36,681 bases of DNA from Escherichia phage vB_EcoS-689R5, in sequence record ON470583; one strand, 5' to 3'. Every line of letters begins with the position of its first letter. Positions within the stretch are counted from its first letter, which is position 1. Below the pieces are notes generated by a model. The model saw only the letters and a list, made by a program, of their open reading frames with translations, was not told the origin of the DNA and searched no databases. A program made the translations under genes and the position numbers. Below, piece by piece: positions 2,664-22,600 of this stretch.

Positions 2664-3659
2664 AGGTAACGGGACATCAAGTGTTGGTGAAACTTTAACC
2701 TTCCTGTCATAGATTAGCACTTGCCCTTCGGTTTTGTGACCAGAGAAAAGTTGCTTATCCCGGCTGCTTCCTTCATAGTCTGAAATTCCTTTCGCCTTCA
2801 GATCATGAAAGGTGAAGTCGGTTAAAATACCTGAAATTTTTCCAGCACGATTTCTTGCATCTACCCACATTTCGTTAAAGCCTTTGTACATATATCGGTT
2901 GCCGTATTGATTGCTGATCACATAGGCAGATTTTGGCAACTGTTTTGCTTTTTCGATCGCTGCCTGTAATCGTGGACTCCATGCTTTTATCTGTTTTTTT
3001 CCGGTTTTCCCTTGCTGGATGAATATCCCGTCGTTTCCAATCTGTTCCCATTTCAGCGATAACACATCGGAAACCCTCGCTGCACACAGATAGGCAATTT
3101 CCATTGCGATAAAAACAGGAAGAGGTGCAACGCTTAATACTGCCTGGTATTCTTTGTCGGTTACATATCGTTCGCGGTTTTTGGCCTTGAATTTACTTAC
3201 ACCTGCACATGGGTTAGCCTTCACGTACCCTCGCTCATACCCCCAACTGTAAACACGGGACATACTGCTTTTTTCATGGTTGGCTTGCGTTTTACTCTGC
3301 TCCCCTCTTTTGTCCATGTATCGACGGATGTGTTCTGGTTTTATGGAATCCGCTGGTACCTTACCGAATACGGCAAGCAACTTTTTTTGATGTTGCAGAT
3401 AATCTTTTTGTGTTCTTGGACTAAGGTCACTGTAATAGGCGCTGGCGAGGAATTTTTCCCACAAGCGACCGAATGTCATTGCACGATCGCGATTATTTAC
3501 AGTTTCCTCATACTTTTTCCATAAAGCAGCTAAACCATCCTTGATGGCGGTTAGTGTGACAGATTCTCTGGATGTTGGTTTCCATACATAACTATATTTA
3601 TTTGGGTATACATTTGGAGGTAATTTTTCGTGTTCAGGATTTTTCCTTCGTCTTCCCAT
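2634..3659 (-). CDS. Lambdoid tyrosine integrase
   Basis: 341-aa ORF adjacent to serU with an integrase-like C-terminal region (...FHDLKAKG...LFSGHKTEGQVLIYDRK) and an overlapping upstream xis-like gene. Confidence 0.88.
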   Translation of the reverse strand: MGRRRKNPEHEKLPPNVYPNKYSYVWKPTSRESVTLTAIKDGLAALWKKYEETVNNRDRAMTFGRLWEKFLASAYYSDLSPRTQKDYLQHQKKLLAVFGKVPADSIKPEHIRRYMDKRGEQSKTQANHEKSSMSRVYSWGYERGYVKANPCAGVSKFKAKNRERYVTDKEYQAVLSVAPLPVFIAMEIAYLCAARVSDVLSLKWEQIGNDGIFIQQGKTGKKQIKAWSPRLQAAIEKAKQLPKSAYVISNQYGNRYMYKGFNEMWVDARNRAGKISGILTDFTFHDLKAKGISDYEGSSRDKQLFSGHKTEGQVLIYDRKVKVSPTLDVPLPENIPRKYSK

Positions 3660-3862
3660 CAGATCGCACCAAAATTCGGCTCTACCTCGCGTGGTGGTAA
3701 AGTTTTATTGCAGGTAAATAGATCCCGGCTGACAATCGGTTTGCCACTACGATTGGTATAGAACGGAAGCCCGTTTTCCATTAACCATTTTCGCTGGTGG
3801 CTTGCATATTTGCAGCCCGTTAATATTAGCAATTCATCTTCGGTTAAAAATAAGCTGCTCAT
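3659..3862 (-). CDS. Excisionase-like small protein (DUF4224-type)
   Basis: 67-aa ORF; its stop overlaps the int start (TGATG); sequence MSSLFLTEDELLILTGCKYASHQRKWLMENGLPF... is typical of small proteins upstream of lambdoid integrases. Confidence 0.6.
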   Translation of the reverse strand: MSSLFLTEDELLILTGCKYASHQRKWLMENGLPFYTNRSGKPIVSRDLFTCNKTLPPREVEPNFGAI

Positions 3863-3920
3863 AGCTATATCTCATAACCGCCGCTAACTATATACGGTTA
3901 GCGGCAATTAGGGTTGAACA

Positions 3921-6362
3921 TTAAAAATCAGCCTGACTCGGGATCAGTTTTTGCCAGATAGCTGAAACGTATTTTGCCTGGTAACGAGCGTCATCAAGTG
4001 CATTATGGCGCTCACCTTCGAATGGAATAGCCGTTCTGGCATCGAAGTCTATGGCTTTCCCCAGCTCAACGATTGTGCGTACATCGCGATCGTTGTAGTA
4101 ACGCCACGGGCAGGGGATCCCCTGCCGTTCGTATGAACGGCGCAAAATCGTGTTGTCGAAGTTGGCTCCATTTCCCCAGACCTGAACAAAAAATTCACCG
4201 GAGTTTTCGTCGATAAATTCCCGCAATTGTAACAGTGCATCATCTAACGGGATTTCATCGGTCATAATGGCAGATTGCGCTTCGCGTGATTGCTTAAGCC
4301 ACCATTTAATGGTGTCCCGATCAATGACTCCGCCAGCAGTTTCCAGATCGATAGTCTTACTAAATTCCGGTCCCATATCTCCGGTTTGCGGATCGAAAAA
4401 TATTGCACCTATTGAGATGATCGGGGCATCAGGATTTTTTCCCATGGTTTCAAGGTCGATCATTAGATGGTCACACGTCCTGCTGGTGGATGTGATTTCT
4501 TGATGACCGTTCACCTTAATTGAGTGATCTGCCGTCTCGCCAGTTTCATTATCGCTATCGTGATGCTGATTGCCGCCAGTGTTCTCCTTGTGTGGATGTT
4601 CAGCGCCTTCCATTTCCTCCGGATCATCTTCCTGAACTTCAACCTGATACTCTTCATCGAATGTTTCCTGGTATGTTGCGTCGCCCATCACCGCGCCACA
4701 ATCAGGGCAGTTGCCGCCGCCGGTCTGACCGCAGGCGGTGCAGACTTTTTCCACTTCCTGTTGCGCCACTGGTTCGGATTGTTTCGTTTCTGGCTCGTTT
4801 TGTAACGCATTTGGGCTGTTTTGTTCCGCTTTTTGGTCGTTCCGTTCCGATTCATGCTGGTTCTGGTTCACAGAATCGCGAGTCTGGATCCCTTTGACCC
4901 ATTTCGGATCATTAGGGTCGCTAATCCCCTCAACAAATTCACCACGCGATACAGCAAGTAACTTATCGGCGTCAGGCTGGCTGATATTGGCTGCCTGCAT
5001 AATTTTGTTTACTTCGTCAGCGGTGACTTTTACTTGGTTAGCGGAACTCACCTGCGACTGAGCATCCAGCGACTGCGCGTTCTGGCCATGTTCAGTTGTA
5101 TCCGGTTCCATTGTTTCAGTTGTTGCCTGTTCACCTGCCATTGCGTCAGATGGTTGTGGTTTTTCTTCTTCTGTTTCACGCTCAGTAACCACCTCGCGGT
5201 TAATTTCTTCCAGGATATCTTTTTCCGGCGTATGCCGGGCAGCTGTGAGAGTTTCCTTGCTGGGGTTCTCGTGATCAGTTTCCGTCAAATAGGCGTTGAT
5301 ATACCCCTGAAGGCGTCCCGGGTAGTGATAAAATTCAGGGTGTGCGCTTCGGATAAGTGCAAAAATAGCGGCGCGGGAATAGTCCAGAATACCCGGGGTT
5401 GCACGAAGTGCTGCGGACCATTCTTTGAACGGACTTTCTTGGTTCAGGACTACTTCTTTTGCGCGACGATAAACGCTGCCCTGAATTTCATAAATATTAA
5501 AATCCATCGGAAGTGTGGCTGCTGCAATCTCCACATCCAGTGTGTCGAGGGTGTGTACTAAATTCGGATTGCGATCGGTTTTGTTCCCACCGCCAGCATT
5601 AGCACCGGAAGCCGTGCGGGTGATGCGTGAAACACGATTTCCTTTCATCCACTCTTTTGTCAGCAAACCCCGATCAGTGTAGTCAGCGTCTAGGTATGCT
5701 TCGAAAAAAGCAGTTATTAGTCCCAGGTCTGAATTACCAGGATTAGGGAAAACTTTGTCAGTGTCACGAACCAGTTTGTGGAGGTCGCGAATCTCCAGCG
5801 AGTCGAGCAGACTGGTTTTATGCGAAATAGCCAGGGCAGTAACAGCCGGTAGTTCTTCAGCCCGTGCAATGTGTAATGCCTGGAGTTCGTCGCGTGAAAT
5901 GTGCGTTACTGGTTTTTCGCTGCCGTGTTGAGCAAGCCAACGAATGGGCAGTTCCTGACCGGAGACAGGCAGAAGCATGCTCTCCTCAATCTCAGTCATG
6001 GCTTCGCCGTTGATGTTGGTATTGTCAGTGCTGGCTGGTTTGTCCTGAACAGAGGGGGAAGGGCCGATAAATGTCATTGTGATGCCATCTTTCCCGCCTT
6101 TTTCATAGCGATTGCAGAATTCAGTATCAAACACGCCTTCTGGCGGAAGGTCGTCAACAACGGGCAAATTGACGCGGACGGGTTTTTTAAAGTCGTCTTC
6201 ATCATAATCGTTGTCATCCATTGCGGTAATGCAGCGGGAGATTGCAACAGATAATTTTTTTGCTGTAGTCCAGTAAAAACCACCTTTAATTCCTAGGCGT
6301 TTTCTTACTTTGTCATTTTTTGCTTCGCAATATAGTGCAAATTCTTCTTTATCAGTGCTCAT
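3921..6362 (-). CDS. Large phage exonuclease-family protein (full-length ydfE-like) with C-terminal DnaQ-like 3'-5' exonuclease domain
   Basis: 813-aa ORF; C-terminal motifs [31 protein letters not shown] (DEDDh-like); central acidic low-complexity region and a CxxC...CxxC ribbon ([16 protein letters not shown]). Confidence 0.7.
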
Positions 6363-6455
6363 TATTGGTAAACCTCATCACAGATTTAAGGGTGAACAAA
6401 TCTCTGCCATTGCTGACATATAAGAATGAAACTGGATATTTATTACGGTGCTGTT

Positions 6456-6832: not shown

Positions 6833-7001
6833 TATCGCGCCCTCAACAATGAGTTTTGTGATGCGGTGCCTGGTGCCTCCAGGTGACGTTAACCAGTTAA
6901 CAATTAACGCCGGATACAGAGAATCCACCCATAACACTGTTTTTGGTTTTAACTGTTCCGCGTGCGCTTAGCCGCATTCACCGCATCACAAAATTCACTT
7001 T

Positions 7002-7059
7002 AAAAAGGGCGGCAGAGCAGTCACGGAGTAAAACTGATACCGCCAAACGTCACCAGAAA
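7002..7059 (-). ncRNA. dicF: DicF small RNA
   Basis: Reverse complement reads UUUCUGGUGACGUUUGGCGGUAUCAGUUUUACUCCGUGACUGCUCUGCCGCCCUUUUU with a terminal GC stem plus U-run, between ydfC and dicB. Exact processed ends not determinable. Confidence 0.8.
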
Positions 7060-7399
7060 ATTGATAACAGAGGGCGTTGCAGCGGGGTTGTCACTTAAGC
7101 GTATGGTCAACCTGACAACCCGGTGTCCTCAACGGGGAAGGAATAACCCCGCCATACTTACCGCCGCGCCATTTCGCGTAGTGCCACAACCGGAAGCGCA
7201 CGGTCGACGAAAATTTAACGACAGGCTATCTATGAACCAGCTACCTCGCCGTGCGCTTTCGCGTTATGGTCTGACTTTTCATGGAAATATCCTTTCAGTA
7301 AACTGTCAGTGCCGGATGCTCACCCGTGTCCGGCGCACGCACTCCACCTCACCCGTGGAGAACTCCTTAATTACCAACCTTAGCTTCGTTGGTTAGCTA

Positions 7400-7618
7400 T
7401 TAACGCTGGTATGTAATCATTCTGGCAATGCTTAATGCCGCTGCTTTTTCCAGCCTGGTGATATCCTGCTCCAGAGCGGACAGATTTTCAGCCTGCTTAG
7501 CCCTGGCTTCATTGGCCCATTTCAGATCCTGCGCTGCATTAATTTTCTGGCGCATCCACTCATAAAGTTCATCATCGGTATAGTCTGGCGCGATGATGAC
7601 GGGTTCTCGTTTCTGCAT
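7400..7618 (-). CDS. ydfC: YdfC-like small protein (72 aa)
   Basis: MQKREPVIIAPDYTDDELYEWMRQKINAAQDLKWANEARAKQAENLSALEQDITRLEKAAALSIARMITYQR in the dicB operon position. Confidence 0.6.
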   Translation of the reverse strand: MQKREPVIIAPDYTDDELYEWMRQKINAAQDLKWANEARAKQAENLSALEQDITRLEKAAALSIARMITYQR

Positions 7619-7647
7619 ACTGATTCCTCGCGGTGCTGCTTCGCTTA

Positions 7648-7776
7648 TCAGCCGTTAGATTTTGCCGAGCTGGAAAGCGCCTGTTTAAACTCACTGAAGC
7701 TGAGAGCTTCTTCGCCTTCGGTAAGGCCTTCGAAGTATTCTTCGTAAGCCTTTTTCATGATTGTGTCGAAATCCAT
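7648..7776 (-). CDS. ydfB: YdfB-like small protein (42 aa); absent from the supplied ORF track because it is under 60 aa
   Basis: Manual translation of the reverse strand: MDFDTIMKKAYEEYFEGLTEGEEALSFSEFKQALSSSAKSNG; start overlaps the upstream ydfA-like stop (TGATATG). Confidence 0.55.
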   Translation of the reverse strand: MDFDTIMKKAYEEYFEGLTEGEEALSFSEFKQALSSSAKSNG

Positions 7777-7777
7777 A

Positions 7778-7933
7778 TCACTCACCTGAGTTTCTTTCCA
7801 GCCAGCGACGGGCACCATTTTCGGTTTTAAACGTTTTGCTTTTGGTATACGTCATCGCGGTGAATGTGCCGTCCTGGTTGGGAAACACGCCGTACACCAG
7901 AGATTCGTTGTTGCCAAGATCGATAGTATCCAT
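7778..7933 (-). CDS. ydfA: YdfA-like small protein (51 aa)
   Basis: MDTIDLGNNESLVYGVFPNQDGTFTAMTYTKSKTFKTENGARRWLERNSGE; first gene of the leftward operon. Confidence 0.55.
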   Translation of the reverse strand: MDTIDLGNNESLVYGVFPNQDGTFTAMTYTKSKTFKTENGARRWLERNSGE

Positions 7934-8114
7934 GTTGACCTCATTTCCCCTTAACGCCGGGGTAGCGGAACAAAAACCTGCTGCATAGTTATTAAAGTTG
8001 AACCCTGCCGTCATGTTCTTACGCCTCGGGCTGGCTACTTAACCCCTGACCACTGCCTGGTAACTCGAAGTATTGCCCGGCGTTCTATGGGGCGGGGTGG
8101 GTTGGTATGCAATA

Positions 8115-8143
8115 AATCTAAAAGTATTTAGTTTTATAGTCAA
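8115..8143 (-). promoter_or_regulatory. pL-like leftward early promoter (TTGACT-17 bp-TAGATT on the minus strand) overlapping an operator-like motif
   Basis: Read on reverse complement; lies between the cI terminator and ydfA; the same ATCTAAAARTAYTTAG motif occurs in the cI-cro intergenic region. Confidence 0.5.
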
Positions 8144-8162
8144 GGGGAATCTAAATTAATTT

Positions 8163-8187
8163 AAAAAAAAGGTCGGCATAACCGACC
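8163..8187 (-). terminator. Rho-independent terminator downstream of the cI-like repressor gene
   Basis: Minus strand: GGUCGGUUAUGCCGACC hairpin followed by an 8-U tract. Confidence 0.7.
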
Positions 8188-8210
8188 TTAAGTTCAAGGA
8201 CATAGCAGGG

Positions 8211-8858
8211 TTATAGGTTGAACTGCACACCTTTTGCTACGGCAACAATTTTACACTCTGGCGTAAGCAAGGATGATTGATAGCGCGGATTGAGAGGGCT
8301 TAAATACACAAGTTTTCCATCAATAACTAATTTTTTTATAGTCATAGACGGTTCATTTGTAAGTGGATCTGGAACTATTACAGCGACGATACTGCCATTT
8401 TTATAACTCTCTCCTGGTCTTAGGATCACAGTGGCACCAACCGGGATACTTGGTGACCCTGAGGGGTTATGCATAGTGTCATCAGGCATTGAAACGGCAA
8501 AATCACCTTCCACTACATCAAAGAATGTGGTGATCCTATCGACATTTCCCATTGTTTTCTCTCCTTCTAAGATTAGGAAAGAAATCGCGTCACCCCACGA
8601 AAAGTAGGGGATCTTGGTGCCTGGATTGCTCTGCACAAAAGATAGTTCAGGAGACGATACTCCATACAGGAGATAGGACTCAGTAGTTCCTAATGCCTGG
8701 GCTAACTTACTTAGAGCTTTGCTGCCGGGTTCGTTTAGATCTTTCTCCCAGTACCCTATAGTAACCCCAGTCACGCCTGAAAGCTTACCCAGTTCTACTT
8801 GGGTGAGTCCCTTATCTTTTCTGAGTTTCTTAAGCCTGATGCCAAGGCTTTCCATCAT
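8211..8858 (-). CDS. CI-like prophage repressor (HTH-XRE N-terminus, LexA/S24-like C-terminus)
   Basis: 215-aa ORF divergent from cro; N-terminal LTQVELGKLSGVTGVTIGYWEK helix-turn-helix; C-terminal peptidase-like domain. Confidence 0.8.
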   Translation of the reverse strand: MMESLGIRLKKLRKDKGLTQVELGKLSGVTGVTIGYWEKDLNEPGSKALSKLAQALGTTESYLLYGVSSPELSFVQSNPGTKIPYFSWGDAISFLILEGEKTMGNVDRITTFFDVVEGDFAVSMPDDTMHNPSGSPSIPVGATVILRPGESYKNGSIVAVIVPDPLTNEPSMTIKKLVIDGKLVYLSPLNPRYQSSLLTPECKIVAVAKGVQFNL

Positions 8859-9675: not shown

Positions 9676-10746
9676 ATGGCTAACGCCTGGCTCAGATTAT
9701 GGCATGACATGCCAAATGACCCTAAGTGGCGAACAATTGCCAGGGTGTCAGGGCAGCCAATTGCAACAGTGATGGCAGTGTATATCCACCTCCTGGTGAG
9801 CGCGTCACGAAATGTCACGCGAGGTCACATTGATGTCACGACAGAAGATTTGGCAAGTGCGCTCGACGTGACAGAAGAGGTAATTGATTCAATTTTGCAG
9901 ACGATGCAGGGGCGGGTACTTGATGGTGATTTAATCACTGGATGGGAAAAACGCCAGGTGCTTAAAGAGGACAACGGCAATATTTCGCAAACCGCAAAAT
10001 CTCCTGCAGAGCGCAAGAGGGCGCAGCGAGAGAGGGAAAGAAAGCGGGAACAAAATGGCGATTGTCACGGCGCGTCACGAAATGTCACGCACATGTCACG
10101 ACGAGTCACGACAGATAAAGATACAGATAAAGATACAGATCAAGAAGATCAAAACACTATGGTCCATGGCGTAAAAAACGCCACGAACCAGGCAGGGGAT
10201 GTTCAGACCGTCAATCCTGGTCAGCCAGCAGGCACGACACCGGAAGCCGATTCAGCGTATGCGCTGAAAGCCGATTCGGGCGCTGTGCAGCAGGTGATGA
10301 CCGCAAGGCCGGAGCAATCACACCAACTGCAGCAGCCTGAAGCCGATTCCGCCATTCAGCGGGAAGCCGATCGGGTAGTCCCGGAAAGCACCGGGCAGTC
10401 TGTGGGACGAGTGGATTATCCGGATGTGTTCGAACAGGTCTGGCGGGAGTACCCGTTGCGTGCCGGAGCAAACCCGAAGAAATCCGCTTTCAGTGCCTGG
10501 AAGGCCAGATTACGCGAGGGGGTGCCACCAGAGGCCATGCTGGATGGCGTGAGGCGTTACGCAAGATACTTGGCGGCTACCGGGAAAACGGGAACGGAAT
10601 TTGTTCAGCGAGCGACGACGTTTTTTGGACCGGACCGGAATTTTGAGAACCCCTGGTTGCTCCCGGTAAGCAGCACGAACAACCAGCGTTGTGTGAATCA
10701 TATTTCTGAACCGGATAACGAAATTCCGCCGGGCTTCAGGGGGTAA
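9676..10746 (+). CDS. Phage replisome organizer / replication initiator (O-like) containing the origin iterons
   Basis: N-terminal WLRLWHDMPNDPKW replisome-organizer motif; coding sequence holds two clusters of GTCACG iterons and an AT-rich repeat. Start taken at the ATG 5 nt after AAGAGG. Confidence 0.75.
   Translation: MANAWLRLWHDMPNDPKWRTIARVSGQPIATVMAVYIHLLVSASRNVTRGHIDVTTEDLASALDVTEEVIDSILQTMQGRVLDGDLITGWEKRQVLKEDNGNISQTAKSPAERKRAQRERERKREQNGDCHGASRNVTHMSRRVTTDKDTDKDTDQEDQNTMVHGVKNATNQAGDVQTVNPGQPAGTTPEADSAYALKADSGAVQQVMTARPEQSHQLQQPEADSAIQREADRVVPESTGQSVGRVDYPDVFEQVWREYPLRAGANPKKSAFSAWKARLREGVPPEAMLDGVRRYARYLAATGKTGTEFVQRATTFFGPDRNFENPWLLPVSSTNNQRCVNHISEPDNEIPPGFRG
9801..9840. repeat. 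Iteron cluster 1: four GTCAC(G/A) direct repeats at 10-11 bp spacing
   Basis: cgcGTCACGaaatGTCACGcgagGTCACAttgatGTCACG; the 20-mer cgcgtcacgaaatgtcacgc recurs exactly at 10071-10090. Confidence 0.75.
10061..10150. repeat. Iteron cluster 2 (five GTCACG repeats) plus AT-rich tandem acagataaag x3; probable ori
   Basis: attGTCACGgcgcGTCACGaaatGTCACGcacatGTCACGacgaGTCACGacagataaagatacagataaagatacagat. Confidence 0.7.
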
Positions 10747-10786
10747 GTGTTAATTTCTGGTCATGAGGTAATTTTCAGGAGGGCTT

Positions 10787-10984
10787 GTGGCAAAAGTTTT
10801 TACACAAGAAGAGCGGGAAAAAATTAAAGGGCAGGTTCTTGAACTCGTACGCCAGAGTGGACGCGAGACGTTACGACAACTGGAAGCTAAAACTGGGGCA
10901 ACAAGATATCTGATGAGCGTTCTGGCCAGAGAGCTGGTTGCCAGTGGCGATGTATACAACTCTGGTTACGGGTTATTCCCGTCT
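10787..10984 (+). CDS. Hypothetical protein, 5' fragment interrupted by the assembly gap
   Basis: ORF MAKVFTQEEREKIKGQVLELVRQSGRETLRQLEAKTGATRYLMSVLARELV... runs into the N run. Confidence 0.4.
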
Positions 10985-10994
10985 NNNNNNNNNN
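10985..10994. other. Assembly gap (10 N)
   Basis: Literal nnnnnnnnnn in the sequence; true length unknown. Confidence 0.99.
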
Positions 10995-10995
10995 G

Positions 10996-11211
10996 CGTAA
11001 GGATTGGCAAAATACCCGTAAAAAGCTCTCAAGGGCAAAGCTGAAGAAACCATCTGCGGTTGATCCGGACCTTATCTGGTCATTACCAGACGGAGAAATA
11101 CGCCGCTACGACAGGCGTCAGAACATAATCTGTCGCGAGTGCCGGAAGAGCGAAGCTATGCAGCGTGTGCTGGCGTTCTATCAGGGTAATTTTCAGGAGG
11201 TGATGGCGTGA
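10996..11211 (+). CDS. Hypothetical protein, 3' fragment after the gap (same or different gene as 10787-10984)
   Basis: Open frame ...RKDWQNTRKKLSRAKLKKPSAVDPDLIWSLPDGEIRRYDRRQNIICRECRKSEAMQRVLAFYQGNFQEVMA ending at TGA that overlaps the next gene start. Confidence 0.35.
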   Translation, partial: RKDWQNTRKKLSRAKLKKPSAVDPDLIWSLPDGEIRRYDRRQNIICRECRKSEAMQRVLAFYQGNFQEVMA

Positions 11212-15010: not shown

Positions 15011-15403
15011 ATGAAGAAACTTGTTTTAGTCGCAGGTGTAATGATTGCAACAGTAATGTTGGGAGGGTGTGCAGCAAAGGTCGATCCAGCGTTGAAAGCA
15101 GAAGCAATGAAGCCACTAACATGTAATGATGAAAAGCAATGTGACTTTTATTGGAAACGAGCGCAATTCTGGTTGGCTAATAATTCCTCATGGAAAATTC
15201 AAACGGCGACAGACACGCTAATTTCCACTTATAATCCCTCTCCAAATAGTCCATTCCTCGCTTATCAAGTGAGTAAAATGCCAAATGAAGATGGATCCTC
15301 AAGAATTTTCATCAAGCCTTTTTGCGATAATATGTTTGGCTGTCAACCAAACCCCTATCAGGCAGTTGTTTCCTTTAAAAACTTCGTTAAAACAGGGCAG
15401 TAG
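15011..15403 (+). CDS. Predicted lipoprotein of unknown function (moron)
   Basis: Signal peptide plus lipobox MKKLVLVAGVMIATVMLGGC; AT-rich codon usage unlike neighbouring phage genes; followed by a strong terminator. Confidence 0.65.
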   Translation: MKKLVLVAGVMIATVMLGGCAAKVDPALKAEAMKPLTCNDEKQCDFYWKRAQFWLANNSSWKIQTATDTLISTYNPSPNSPFLAYQVSKMPNEDGSSRIFIKPFCDNMFGCQPNPYQAVVSFKNFVKTGQ

Positions 15404-18281: not shown

Positions 18282-18357
18282 GGCCCTTTAGCTCAGTGGT
18301 GAGAGCGAGCGACTCATAATCGCCAGGTCGCTGGTTCAAATCCAGCAAGGGCCACCA
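18282..18357 (+). tRNA. tRNA-Ile2-like (anticodon CAU; ileX/ileZ-type, could also read as tRNA-Met)
   Basis: GGCCCUUUAGCUCAGUGGUGAGAGCGAGCGACUCAUAAUCGCCAGGUCGCUGGUUCAAAUCCAGCAAGGGCCACCA; clean cloverleaf with CUCAUAA anticodon loop. Confidence 0.8.
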
Positions 18358-18358
18358 G

Positions 18359-18435
18359 CCGCCACTAGCTCATCAGGAAAGAGCGTCAACCCTTTAAGTT
18401 GAGTGTGCGAGGTTCGAGTCCCCGGTGGCGGTCCA
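18359..18435 (+). tRNA. Atypical tRNA-like gene (anticodon loop CCUUUAA; isotype uncertain, possibly UUU/Lys-like or a pseudo-tRNA)
   Basis: Perfect 7-bp acceptor stem (CCGCCAC/GUGGCGG), U8-A9, D arm, TUCGAGU T-loop and encoded CCA; but C at position 33 and one T-stem mismatch. Confidence 0.5.
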
Positions 18436-18437
18436 GT

Positions 18438-18513
<76 letters not shown>

Positions 18514-18516
18514 TAT

Positions 18517-18591
<75 letters not shown>

Positions 18592-19516: not shown

Positions 19517-20050
19517 ATGAACGCAAAAATCAGATACGGCCTGTCGGCTGCCGTTCTGGCACTGATTGCCGTCGGTGCGCCCGCGCCTGATATTCTCGAC
19601 CAGTTTCTGGATGAAAAAGAAGGTAACCACACAACGGCATACCGCGATGGTTCCGGCATCTGGACCATCTGTCGGGGTGCCACGATGGTGGATGGAAAAC
19701 CCGTTTTTCCCGGTATGAAACTGTCGAAGGAAAAATGCGACCAGGTCAACGCCATTGAGCGTGATAAGGCGCTGGCATGGGTGGAGCGCAATATTAAAGT
19801 ACCACTGACCGAACCACAAAAAGCGGGTATCGCGTCATTTTGTCCCTATAACATTGGCCCCGGTAAGTGTTTTCCATCGACGTTTTATAAGCGGCTGAAT
19901 GCTGGTGATCGTAAGGGCGCATGCGAGGCGATTCGCTGGTGGATAAAAGATGGTGGGCGCGATTGCCGCATACGTTCAAATAACTGCTATGGACAGGTTA
20001 TTCGTCGTGACCAGGAAAGCGCATTAGCCTGTTGGGGAATAGATCAGTGA
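19517..20050 (+). CDS. SAR endolysin (T4-lysozyme-like muramidase with N-terminal signal-arrest-release segment)
   Basis: N-terminal [17 protein letters not shown] hydrophobic SAR segment; E...D...T catalytic spacing in [16 protein letters not shown]. Confidence 0.8.
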
Positions 20051-20514
20051 GCAGAGTCGCCGCGATTATTTATGCTCTGGTTATCTGCATCATCGTCTGC
20101 CTGTCGTGGGCGGTCAATCATTACCGTGATAACGCCATCACCTACAAAGAACAGCGTGATAAAAAAGTCAGTGAGCTGAAGCAGCTGACCGCCACCATCG
20201 CTGACATGCAGCAGCGTCAGCGTGATGTTGCTGCGCTCGATGCAAAGTACTCGAGAGAATTAGCCAATGCGAAAGCTGAAAATGAAACTCTGCGCGCTGA
20301 TGTTGCCGCTGGTCGTAAGCGCCTGCGGGTCAATGCCAGTTGCTCCGCAGCCGTGCGTGAAGCCACCGGACCCACCAGCGTGGATAATGCAACCAGCCCC
20401 AGACTGGCAGACACCGCTGAACGGGATTATTTCACCCTCAGAGAACGGTTGATGACGATGCAGAAGCAACTGGAAGGGGCACAGCTATACATTCGTGAGC
20501 AATGTCTCAGATAA
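20047..20514 (+). CDS. Rz: Rz i-spanin
   Basis: GTG start overlapping the R stop; N-terminal TM ([20 protein letters not shown]) followed by coiled-coil-like sequence; Rz1 embedded. Confidence 0.75.
20267..20452 (+). CDS. Rz1: Rz1 o-spanin (outer-membrane lipoprotein) embedded in the +1 frame of Rz
   Basis: [61 protein letters not shown]; lipobox VSAC and proline-rich mature part. Confidence 0.85.
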
Positions 20515-20669
20515 AAACCGGCCAAGGATAATCCGCTAAAGATTCGCCGGTGGCGAAAGAGAGCCAAGGTGTCAACCTACGCTATTACTTATGATAATGC
20601 AACAGACGAAGCGGGACATATTGGCGCATAACAAATCAGTGCAGGCTAACTGCAGGAAGAACTTAGGGC

Positions 20670-20936
20670 GTGAACGTAGAAAACCTAAGTAACGCACATT
20701 ACATCTATAACGAGATGAAAGAGCTACAGCGACAGAAAGGTATACTGGAAAGTGGTGCAGGGCTTGGTGTGACAATCCAGTCTGCCTATCAATATAGTGC
20801 TTTTCTTGAGGCCATACGCCCGCATGCAGTTGCTGAACTTAACAGCCGTATTGAGGAAAAGAAATCCGCGCTGGTTAATTTGGGTGCTTCCTTCTCTATA
20901 TACGAGCATAATAAGGCGGGTTGGAAACCCGCCTAA
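20670..20936 (+). CDS. Hypothetical protein (88 aa), first gene of an AT-rich moron after the lysis cassette
   Basis: GTG-initiated ORF MNVENLSNAHYIYNEMKELQRQKG...; its 3' end forms a hairpin shared with the convergent gene. Confidence 0.4.
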   Translation: MNVENLSNAHYIYNEMKELQRQKGILESGAGLGVTIQSAYQYSAFLEAIRPHAVAELNSRIEEKKSALVNLGASFSIYEHNKAGWKPA

Positions 20937-20941
20937 AGCAC

Positions 20942-21481
20942 TTAGAAACTGCGTGGAGCTGTGGAAAGAATGGATGCCAGTTCTTCCTTCGATAAATCCC
21001 AGCTTCGATTTACAGCGTCAATTTTCTTAAACTCATCAAGCATTGCGTTATAGAGATGTTCTGTACGTGAATGAGTATTGGCAATGGGCTGTTTCTGTTC
21101 GGGGAAGCGATCAATTTTCTGATATGCCTCAATGATACTGAAGTAATCGCATTCATTATGACCGTCGAAACCTGGGAGCTGAATTTCCCCATCATGTATT
21201 TTTAGATGATGGTCACGGACTAATTCTTTTTGCTCGTCATCACTAAGTTTCCTGAAAGCATTGGAAAGTCCGCGGTACATATTCAAGACAGCAGTAACAA
21301 AATCACGATCTTCTTTACTTGGTTCATCAACATCCAAATGTGAATATTCGGCCTTCATAACCCAATCATTACCAGATGACACAGCATATTTTACAAGCTG
21401 TGGATCAATATCAGTTTCGATACCTAGGTGGATGGCAATGTCACATAACAAAATGGTATTGATTTTATCCTTAATATCCAT
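20942..21481 (-). CDS. YfbU-family (UPF0304)-like protein, reverse-strand moron
   Basis: 179-aa ORF with segments resembling YfbU (MYRGL..., LPGFDG..., THSRTEHLYNAMLDEF..., LSKEELASIL); about 40 percent GC against about 55 percent in flanking genes. Confidence 0.45.
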   Translation of the reverse strand: MDIKDKINTILLCDIAIHLGIETDIDPQLVKYAVSSGNDWVMKAEYSHLDVDEPSKEDRDFVTAVLNMYRGLSNAFRKLSDDEQKELVRDHHLKIHDGEIQLPGFDGHNECDYFSIIEAYQKIDRFPEQKQPIANTHSRTEHLYNAMLDEFKKIDAVNRSWDLSKEELASILSTAPRSF

Positions 21482-21619
21482 GAGTTAACCCTCTGAAGTA
21501 AAAAGTAATATCTACACCCGTTAGCTCATGAAGTCTATTGATCTGGCTCATATCAGCGGCAAATCTATTTCATGGAGATACTCAATGCAGGTCACTTTTG
21601 ATTTATATAAGGGCGAAAC

Positions 21620-21970
21620 ATGCCAGCACTAATCCCACGAGCCTGCCGTAAACGTGGATGTGCAGGTACAACCACAGACAGTTCTGGTTACTGCGATAAA
21701 CATCGTGGCGAAGGATGGGTACAGCATCAGCGCGGACTGAGTCGCCACCAGCGTGGCTATGGCTCGAAATGGGATGCCATACGTGCGCGCATACTGAAGC
21801 GTGATAATGATCTGTGTCAGAACTGCCTGCGCAATGGGAGAGCCGTTGAAGCCAGAACTGTGGACCACATCATTCCGAAAGCTCATGGTGGCTCGGATGC
21901 AGACAGTAACCTGCAGAGTCTGTGCTGGCCCTGCCATAAAGCAAAAACAGCGCGCGAACGCATCAATTGA
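21620..21970 (+). CDS. HNH endonuclease (terminase-associated)
   Basis: MPALIPRACRKRGCAGTT...VDHIIPKAHGGSDADSNLQSLCWPCHKAKT; directly upstream of terminase small subunit. Confidence 0.85.
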   Translation: MPALIPRACRKRGCAGTTTDSSGYCDKHRGEGWVQHQRGLSRHQRGYGSKWDAIRARILKRDNDLCQNCLRNGRAVEARTVDHIIPKAHGGSDADSNLQSLCWPCHKAKTARERIN

Positions 21971-22117: not shown

Positions 22118-22600
22118 ATGTCTGGACCCCCGAAAATCCCGCCACGCCTGCATTTGATACGAGGCAACCCCTCAAAGCGGCCAGTTAAAGACCTCAAAAA
22201 AACCGCTAAAAAGGATGAAAAAGGTCTCCCTAAAATTCCGCAACATTTAGGGGCGCAGGGGAAGTACTGGTTCAGGCGAATGGCGGAAGAGCTGAATGCG
22301 GAAGGGATCATTTCTCAGCTTGATGCGCGTGCGCTCGAGTTACTGGTGGAAGCCTATACCGAATACCGGCATCACTGCGAAACACTCGATGTTGAGGGGT
22401 ACACCTACCGCTCGGAAACGCAGAACGGTGATGTGCTGATTAAGGCACACCCGGCTGCTGCGATGAAAGCGGATGCCTGGAAGCGGATCCGGGCGATGCT
22501 TGCAGAATTTGGTATGTCACCGGCAAGCCGGGCAAAAGTAAATACCGCCGGACCGGATAATGTTGATCCGCTGGCAGAGCTTTTAAAAGCGAGAGACTGA
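22118..22600 (+). CDS. Terminase small subunit (P27-like)
   Basis: 160-aa ORF between HNH and the large terminase; stop overlaps the TerL start. Confidence 0.75.
   Translation: MSGPPKIPPRLHLIRGNPSKRPVKDLKKTAKKDEKGLPKIPQHLGAQGKYWFRRMAEELNAEGIISQLDARALELLVEAYTEYRHHCETLDVEGYTYRSETQNGDVLIKAHPAAAMKADAWKRIRAMLAEFGMSPASRAKVNTAGPDNVDPLAELLKARD

Follow-up and report, generated by a model that had tools for sequence, protein, structure and literature searches.

A crystal structure of YfbU (UPF0304) of Escherichia coli has been available since 2004. To our knowledge, its molecular function has not been established, the functional links being a report on death after DNA damage and an antiphage homologue from lactococci described in 2024. 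This homologue, Kamadhenu, is a single-gene system of Lactococcus plasmids that encodes a YfbU-domain protein of 180 amino acids (aa) and confers phage resistance resembling abortive infection (PMC11381338). Phage mutants that escape Kamadhenu map to a Sak-like single-strand annealing protein, and the system leaves phage DNA replication, transcription and translation unaffected (PMC12184496, PMC13064643). In E. coli, death after DNA damage was reported to depend on yfbU (PMC2646832). The gene treated here belongs to the same family and lies in a stretch of 36,681 nucleotides (nt) of Escherichia phage vB_EcoS-689R5 (sequence record ON470583), which in the following is called the window. It encodes 179 aa, is located on the minus strand at positions 20942-21481 and forms, together with a convergent open reading frame (ORF) of 88 aa on the plus strand (p88, 20670-20936), a block of low G+C (GC) content between the lysis genes and the HNH endonuclease and terminase genes of an HK97-like/lambdoid prophage. 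The block is best explained as a mosaic insertion of two unrelated modules at the cargo hotspot between lysis and packaging genes. The 179-aa gene is a sound candidate for an antiphage defence gene, tractable in the best of model hosts and not surprising in kind.

Phage lambda carries bor in antisense orientation after Rz/Rz1, from where it is expressed in lysogens. Bor and Iss are outer-membrane lipoproteins of ~97 aa that confer serum resistance. A moron, in the definition of Juhala and Hendrix, is an optional, compositionally distinct element with its own promoter and terminator, which serve its expression from the repressed prophage. With lambda bor and iss of the ColV type, the YfbU-family gene shares the insertion site, the antisense orientation, a GC content below that of the surroundings and the polymorphism of presence and absence. 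Unlike Bor and Iss, the 179-aa protein is a cytoplasmic helical protein of the YfbU family that has neither a signal peptide nor a lipobox. E. coli YfbU (PDB 1WPB, 4LR3) is a core chromosomal protein of 164 aa, whereas the protein encoded in the window has 179 aa and is accessory and phage-borne. Kamadhenu (pUCCL624_130; Grafakou et al. 2024, PMC11381338; Mosterd et al. 2025, PMC12184496), for whose tests a high-copy vector was used, is carried by a plasmid of a Gram-positive host, in contrast to the location of the gene described here in the late region of an Enterobacteriaceae prophage.

The YfbU cassette as optional prophage cargo

Both ORFs, the 88-aa one starting with GTG and the 179-aa one with ATG, had been recognized in an earlier note on this DNA. 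In two E. coli chromosomes that contain identical DNA, RefSeq calls both at the same coordinates and labels them "hypothetical protein" (WP_001100260.1) and "YfbU family protein", respectively. The sharp drop in GC content on which the note was built was borne out: positions 20515 to 21620 contain 42.0% GC compared with 49.8% for the window as a whole, and 0.3% of the segments of equal length are lower. The lysis genes have 50.9% GC and the genes from HNH to the large terminase (TerL) 51.8%. Since the 179-aa gene has 39.3% GC (38.4% in its upstream region) and the 88-aa gene 45.3%, the drop sits mainly in the reverse-strand gene. The AT-rich block is real, but its borders differ from those first proposed (20515-21620). 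Its true extent is 20485-21619, and its left edge falls within the final 10 codons of Rz: homology to prophages in which the site is empty or occupied by iss ends at 20484/20477 and resumes exactly at 21620, the start codon of the HNH gene.

The assignment of the block to the lambdoid cargo site where lambda carries bor is confirmed by two sibling prophages. In one (L002), whose holin and YdfR protein accessions are identical to those of the window prophage and whose Q and downstream tRNA genes are closely related, the site is empty and Rz is joined to HNH across 42 nt. In the other (L003), the place of the block is taken by the bor homologue iss, likewise in antisense orientation. Among 5,426 complete E. 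coli genomes, the whole block is present in 224 (~4%) and the two flanks are adjacent to each other in 183, so that the comparison of synteny with related prophages suggested in the note revealed a variable block. The whole block occurs in one of 50,697 deposited phage records. It is carried by two or more prophages that differ in their early regions; one is integrated at tRNA-Ser (serU), another at ybhC. The window's own prophage is the one at tRNA-Ser, as had been supposed, and has mtfA and the yersiniabactin island as neighbours. Most of the carrier genomes listed come from human clinical isolates.

The anatomy of the YfbU cassette is that of a moron: it is optional, of foreign composition and antisense to the silent late operon, with a conserved 5' region and a hairpin at the 3' end. 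Its presence in some and absence from other homologous genomes is documented by the empty site, the iss-bearing site and the genome counts, and its unlike composition by the GC contents given above. Possible elements of a promoter and a terminator of its own are conserved upstream blocks with a Shine-Dalgarno sequence and a hairpin with a weak U tail on the correct strand; consensus scans called neither a promoter nor a terminator. Since p88 is a forward gene of the late operon, the moron definition applies to the reverse gene alone.

The hairpin on which the two 3' ends were said to converge has a 9-bp stem at 20914-20934 (AGGCGGGTT-gga-AACCCGCCT) and is likely the intrinsic terminator of the minus-strand gene. 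It is contained in the final 7 codons of the 88-aa ORF, 7 nt from the stop codon of the 179-aa ORF. On the minus strand only, it is followed by a weak U-rich tail (UUAUUAU). Local folds of 66 nt reach about -18 kcal/mol, with z values of -1.8 and -2.3 relative to shuffled sequences. At the other end, the 5' region of the cassette (21482-21583, minus strand) contains the Shine-Dalgarno sequence GAGGG (21489-21493), the blocks GATATTA (21506-21512) and TAGACT (21532-21537) and, presumably, the promoter. In an alignment of seven upstream regions both blocks are invariant and the Shine-Dalgarno sequence is conserved; inspection of the blocks by eye did not reveal a convincing -35/-10 spacing. On the plus strand, the promoter scan returned two sites, which corresponds to the chance level.

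Family, position and possible role of the 179-aa protein

The similarity to YfbU, described as patchy in the note, holds up in a search with Pfam profiles. PF03887 matches residues 47-172 with 44.1 bits (cut-off 25) and an E value of 3e-11, which places the protein in the family, and the same domain is precomputed on most full-length homologues (at least 170 aa). The match to phrog_6084 extends over the full length (E 2.9e-82). A profile of 27 homologues matches PDB 1WPB/4LR3, and the fold agrees: the protein has the two-domain helical fold of YfbU (1WPB). The profile was needed for this match; a PDB search with the single 179-aa sequence yielded a spurious match to a stathmin repeat. A Pfam match to the Cfr10I/Bse634I restriction endonucleases was rejected, since it scored 17.7 bits against a threshold of 27 and the fold search showed no similarity to nucleases. 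With the NCBIfam equivalog of YfbU (NF003936 / PRK05445) the protein scores 33.8 bits, below the cut-off of 90. It is a bona fide but divergent member of the YfbU family, a paralogue and not an orthologue of chromosomal yfbU.

The YfbU-like family comprises 909 representative clusters at E≤1e-3, seven of them at E≤1e-30. The motifs RDF...YRGLS, IQxPGFDGNNE..Y and NTHS.T..Y are invariant in the subfamily, and GFD..E..Y is shared with E. coli YfbU and distant family members. About 15 members of 226-242 aa, as well as P0170 and P0173, have an N-terminal extension of ~50 aa. In two of ten scanned proteins (P0170, P0173), the extension scored 18.7-20.4 bits with the ribbon-helix-helix profile RHH_1 (threshold 20.5), a hint at a possible coupling of the YfbU domain to autoregulation by DNA binding, in the manner of antitoxins.

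Purifying selection acts on both genes, with ratios of nonsynonymous to synonymous substitution rates (dN/dS) of 0.07-0.14 in the YfbU-like gene and of 0.14-0.35 in p88; both ORFs are intact, and selection was measured across synonymous divergence up to saturation. These values bear on the idea that the block is functionless DNA that hitch-hiked in by illegitimate recombination. Its junctions are indeed ragged, in that the left edge cuts Rz, an ORF of normally 45 aa is truncated and the stop codon of p88 is lost, and one relative has an insertion sequence (IS) inside the YfbU-like gene. Given the intact ORFs, the purifying selection on both and the persistence of invariant motifs across the 909 YfbU-like clusters, an origin as mere ballast is scarcely credible.

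The position of the gene is conserved beyond the window. In all 51 viral-contig loci with recognizable neighbours (47-100% identity), it is antisense and located between the lysis genes and HNH/terminase, on backbones that differ in their holins, endolysins, spanins and terminases. Five more distant representatives (profile E 1e-22 to 1e-32) were looked up, four of which are antisense in prophage late regions: P0159 has a DUF2514 spanin on one side and a Terminase_2 gene on the other, P0163 is flanked by the Q antiterminator region and a lambda-type GpA terminase, P0164 adjoins a Hendrixvirinae small terminase, and P0162 is flanked by Q/methylase genes and holins. The fifth, P0167, is on a 2.6-kb contig whose neighbours are not recognizable. 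Relatives with identities as low as ~30% are found in antisense orientation next to lysis genes in unrelated prophages. Further members of the family are plasmid-borne, in Kosakonia, Raoultella and Acinetobacter as well as on more than 140 plasmids of Enterococcus. Isolated phage genomes are nearly devoid of the gene (3 of 50,697 records, and a single match in the BFVD fold database). In the viral contig IMGVR_UViG_2711768076_000009 (L065 ~3405-5000 / L102:4271-6010), an IS with a 326-aa transposase splits the YfbU-like gene, which is therefore dispensable for the phage.

In a literature search, no paper was found on the prophage clade, on the constancy of its antisense position or on the accessions of the two proteins. 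The YfbU-family label was already known from RefSeq. The findings identify a distinct YfbU clade as a recurrent optional cargo of enterobacterial prophages that always takes the same antisense place next to the lysis cassette. The undescribed biology announced in the note was nevertheless overstated, since Kamadhenu was published in 2024 (PMC11381338), although the prophage clade itself is undescribed in the literature searched.

Two observations were made on more remote loci. Plasmids of enterococci (Enterococcus faecium plasmid p3, L018:3998-5035, and more than 140 others like it) very commonly carry a YfbU-family gene of 172 aa. A co-oriented gene for a 170-aa hypothetical protein begins 7 nt after it, with resolvase, Fic and IS1216 genes close by; the two genes may constitute an accessory module of their own. 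In a distant branch with 25-30% identity, whose members come from Pseudomonas, Psychrobacter, Thauera, Alteromonas, Arcobacter and others, a gene ~20-50 nt upstream of the YfbU-like gene encodes a conserved protein of ~166 aa that has a hydrophobic segment, probably membrane-spanning and helical, at its N-terminus and matches no Pfam or PADLOC family. The pair seems to make up a conserved operon of two genes, hitherto undescribed (L162-L164, L168, L176, L179, L181, L183, L188, L191, L192, L196, L200, L210 and L159, at ~4378-4983 in each). A relationship of this partner to the transmembrane cargo proteins of the prophage hotspot was considered and dismissed, as the hhalign probability was below 1%.

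The strictly conserved place beside lysis and packaging genes in very different phages might mean that the YfbU-like protein serves the phage, either in counter-defence or host takeover, for example as a decoy that poisons the oligomeric YfbU of the host and so keeps the host from dying at induction, or as a factor acting between lysis and packaging. In line with an oligomeric host protein, the PDB entries of host YfbU have 16 chains, and YfbU was described as forming a large complex (PMC11381338). Arguing against a benefit to the phage is the orientation of the gene, which in every case is antisense to the late operon and hence is not co-transcribed with the late genes. Moreover, the gene is missing from about half of the otherwise near-identical late regions and is sometimes disrupted by an IS, which makes it dispensable, and it is nearly absent from isolated phages while occurring also on plasmids. 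A function in the phage's own cycle is distinctly improbable on these grounds.

The YfbU-like gene could also be a lysogenic-conversion gene that, by the logic of bor and iss, acts on host physiology by influencing survival or death after DNA damage or stress, alongside or in competition with chromosomal YfbU. The presence of iss at the same site in sibling prophages fits this notion, as do the link of chromosomal yfbU to DNA-damage-induced death (PMC2646832), the predominance of human clinical isolates among the listed carriers and the yersiniabactin island next to the window prophage. However, the protein is cytoplasmic, is 17% identical to YfbU and fails the equivalog cut-off. Furthermore, the clade goes with phages from a variety of hosts and with plasmids in unrelated bacteria, not with pathogens, and the sole member from a mobile element that has been tested is antiphage (PMC11381338). 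An effect on host physiology therefore seems rather unlikely to us.

We tentatively favour, with a little less than even confidence, the view that the 179-aa gene is an antiphage defence gene expressed in the lysogen, because Kamadhenu is the only YfbU-domain protein of a mobile element with a tested role. The architecture is the same, one gene for a YfbU-domain protein of ~180 aa on a mobile element: the gene of the window encodes 179 aa, is prophage-borne and has no second gene in its cassette. Integrity of the gene, fold, optional presence, module boundaries and conserved position are observed; for expression in the lysogen, defence and its trigger we infer the steps as follows from bor, iss and Kamadhenu. 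The upstream region, the 179-aa YfbU-family gene and the hairpin form a self-contained low-GC antisense cassette. In the lysogen, a promoter of its own would drive its transcription in opposition to the silent late operon, as is the case for lambda bor and iss at this site. The protein would then act alone against superinfecting phages in a manner resembling abortive infection, as modeled on Kamadhenu. By the same analogy, phage recombination or a single-stranded DNA (ssDNA) intermediate may provide the trigger, and the outcome may be a late block of infection or cell death.

A narrower version of the defence proposal, possible but doubtful, is that the protein is the Kamadhenu counterpart of E. 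coli prophages, a stand-alone sensor-effector with YfbU fold that would recognize phage recombination proteins or ssDNA and abort the infection. The phage-borne antisense clade would then represent a widespread and unrecognized class of prophage immunity, and E. coli would offer a system in which to explain the YfbU/UPF0304 fold, including the chromosomal "death gene". A defence function of any kind would extend the Kamadhenu type to Gram-negative prophages, provide a genetically tractable host and phage set for work on the mechanism and mark the junction between the lysis cassette and HNH/terminase as a hotspot rich in candidate immunity genes that lack annotation. If the gene does not act in defence, it is one more uncharacterized moron.

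Several points weigh against a defence function. The likeness to Kamadhenu is one of domain, size and single-gene layout, and the identity of the 179-aa protein to E. coli YfbU (1WPB) is 17%. A tblastn search of PLSDB with the window protein and an Enterococcus YfbU gave no Lactococcus record among the matches listed; none of the 10 representative YfbU clusters named is from Lactococcus, and the named matches of a homologue search started from the Enterococcus YfbU protein are all enterococcal, the remainder being metagenomic. The designation of yfbU as a death gene rests on a single study. The consensus sigma-70 promoter scan found no promoter on the minus strand upstream of the 179-aa gene, and the consensus terminator scan did not flag the hairpin at 20914-20934. 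The same site bears non-defence cargo in other phages (iss, glycosyltransferases), so that the position alone is no proof of defence. Finally, the search of defence models that the note had recommended came back empty: PADLOC-DB v2.0.0, a library that predates Kamadhenu, contains no match to either protein at E≤1. This last result is uninformative, because Kamadhenu itself is reported to be missing from PADLOC and DefenseFinder (PMC13335696).

p88 and the separate histories of the two modules

In the earlier note the two genes had been taken as a single two-gene moron. Comparison at the DNA level does not sustain this unit and instead splits the block into two independent modules with separate histories. 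The p88 module (20601-20896) is 86% identical to Citrobacter phage Chris1 and ends exactly after codon 76. A spacer (20898-20941) that includes the hairpin separates it from the YfbU cassette (20942 to ~21583), which is 72-78% identical to diverged cassettes; the homology among cassettes begins exactly at the stop codon and reaches 60-100 nt upstream of the ATG (21538-21583). The distributions of the genes are also independent. In viral-contig p88 loci of less than 95% identity, the YfbU-like gene is absent from 48 of 57, and YfbU-like genes at 47-82% identity and beyond occur without p88. When the YfbU-like identity is at least 89%, a p88 homologue is immediately adjacent and convergent in all loci; in several of these, p88 identities of 68-86% are decoupled from YfbU-like identities of 89-99%. 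The adjacency is best explained by a preference of both modules for the same hotspot.

The constant presence of the convergent p88 neighbour at YfbU-like identities of at least 89% could alternatively reflect a functional pair, in which p88 might be a late-expressed self-immunity factor or antitoxin that silences the effector at induction. Such a role would recall the N-terminal extension of distant YfbU proteins, which resembles, in a match below threshold, the ribbon-helix-helix domain typical of antitoxin regulators. A two-gene toxin-antitoxin or defence pair is expected to co-occur and to be co-transcribed; these genes are convergent and independently distributed. The separate module boundaries, the decoupled identities, the loci that contain one gene without the other and the p88 homologues in virulent T5-like, Guernseyvirinae and Erwinia phages all speak against a pair, which we regard as very unlikely.

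The 88-aa ORF is real, but its length is a peculiarity of the lineage. It matches phrog_5415 over positions 1-76 of 76 (E 2e-38), and its 276 homologous clusters are typically 76 aa long with the C-terminus ...LGxSFS. Loss of the stop codon has extended the 76-aa core (to 20897) by 12 codons that run into the hairpin, a read-through tail that is missing from phrog_5415; a relative (L093) has the intact stop codon followed by the same hairpin. The start position is kept as GTG or ATG, with a ribosome-binding site of the GAAGGAG type upstream. The AlphaFold2 (AF2) model has two long helices with a pLDDT of 77, and p88 is accordingly predicted to be a helical hairpin. No match was found in Pfam, NCBIfam, PADLOC or PDB, and a fold search in BFVD retrieved just other uncharacterized helical hairpins at E≥0.13; phrog_5415 and phrog_6084 are both annotated as of unknown function. 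Homologues of p88 are placed after the lysis genes in Citrobacter, Klebsiella and Salmonella prophages. As a small forward gene of the late operon, p88 is widespread among phages, both temperate and virulent, and in most cases is not accompanied by a YfbU-like gene. Its occurrence in virulent phages suggests an accessory role on the side of the phage. A 33-aa ORF (20591-20692, plus strand) is what remains, after truncation at the 5' end, of a conserved ORF of 45 aa, which in related phages overlaps the start of p88. It aligns in frame with ORFs of 42-45 aa in L006, L007, L097, L123 and L101 and has kept the residues QTKRDILAHN.SV..NC; other sequence has taken the place of the first 12 codons.

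The cargo hotspot and the flanking genes

In relatives, the gap between p88 and HNH, which ranges from 243 nt to 3.5 kb (loci L096-L149, with the p88 homologue at ~4001-4228), holds many other small low-GC cargo genes, almost none of which matches Pfam or PADLOC. Three encode an R-x4-H motif reminiscent of HEPN RNases (L106:4306-4869+, L118:4264-4944-, L149:4306-4920-), and the cargo protein of L149 has a weak match to CARF_HEPN of PADLOC (E 0.004). The gap has the look of a hotspot, so far unexplored, for candidate immunity genes. Some relatives contain a gene for a family-2 glycosyltransferase of 485-497 aa (PF00535, borderline score) followed by one for a conserved protein of 196-206 aa (L116:4914-6943, L136:5662-7706, L129:5126-7748), which together may be a surface-polysaccharide (serotype-converting) module. 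In a prophage of the Superficieibacter type (L012/L013), the YfbU-like gene (62% identity) adjoins a PP2C phosphatase and Ser/Thr kinase pair, and a HicA/HicB pair is located directly upstream of the holin (accessory modules at 6990-8488 and 10538-11170), so that several accessory modules cluster around the lysis cassette.

The genes that flank the block are those named in the note, and neither ORF of the block is a lysis or structural gene, as had been stated. On the left, the Rz i-spanin gene (20032-20514, plus strand; PF03245, 167.8 bits; phrog_13) contains an embedded Rz1-like ORF (20267-20452), and a lysozyme gene also belongs to this flank. The last ~10 codons of Rz, from ~20485, are part of the variable block. 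The left junction (20485-20600), which provides a variant Rz C-terminus and stop codon, is known only from near-identical copies of the block (at least 97%) and is unmatched in the empty-site, iss-site, Chris1 and diverged YfbU-block loci. The right junction (21584-21619) runs to the start codon of HNH. The HNH endonuclease gene (21620-21970, plus strand; PF01844, 60 bits) is followed by the genes for the P27-type small terminase (TerS; 22118-22600; PF05119, 88 bits) and the large terminase. A search for attachment-site-like repeats at the block edges gave short chance matches only, and between 20300 and 21800 there was no Rfam match to a structured RNA.

The window has two further GC minima, at ~6180-6400 and ~15030-15150 (37.6% and 38.7% in 540-nt segments), that are as deep as the studied block and are possible further morons of the early region. 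The latter falls within a hypothetical gene that directly follows hokD in the matching RefSeq annotation. Four tRNA genes at 18282-18591, between the Q antiterminator and the holin, comprise one with the anticodon CAT (Met according to ARAGORN, Ile according to RefSeq), followed by Lys-TTT, Thr-TGT and Gly-TCC; this cluster occupies another classic cargo position of lambdoid phages.

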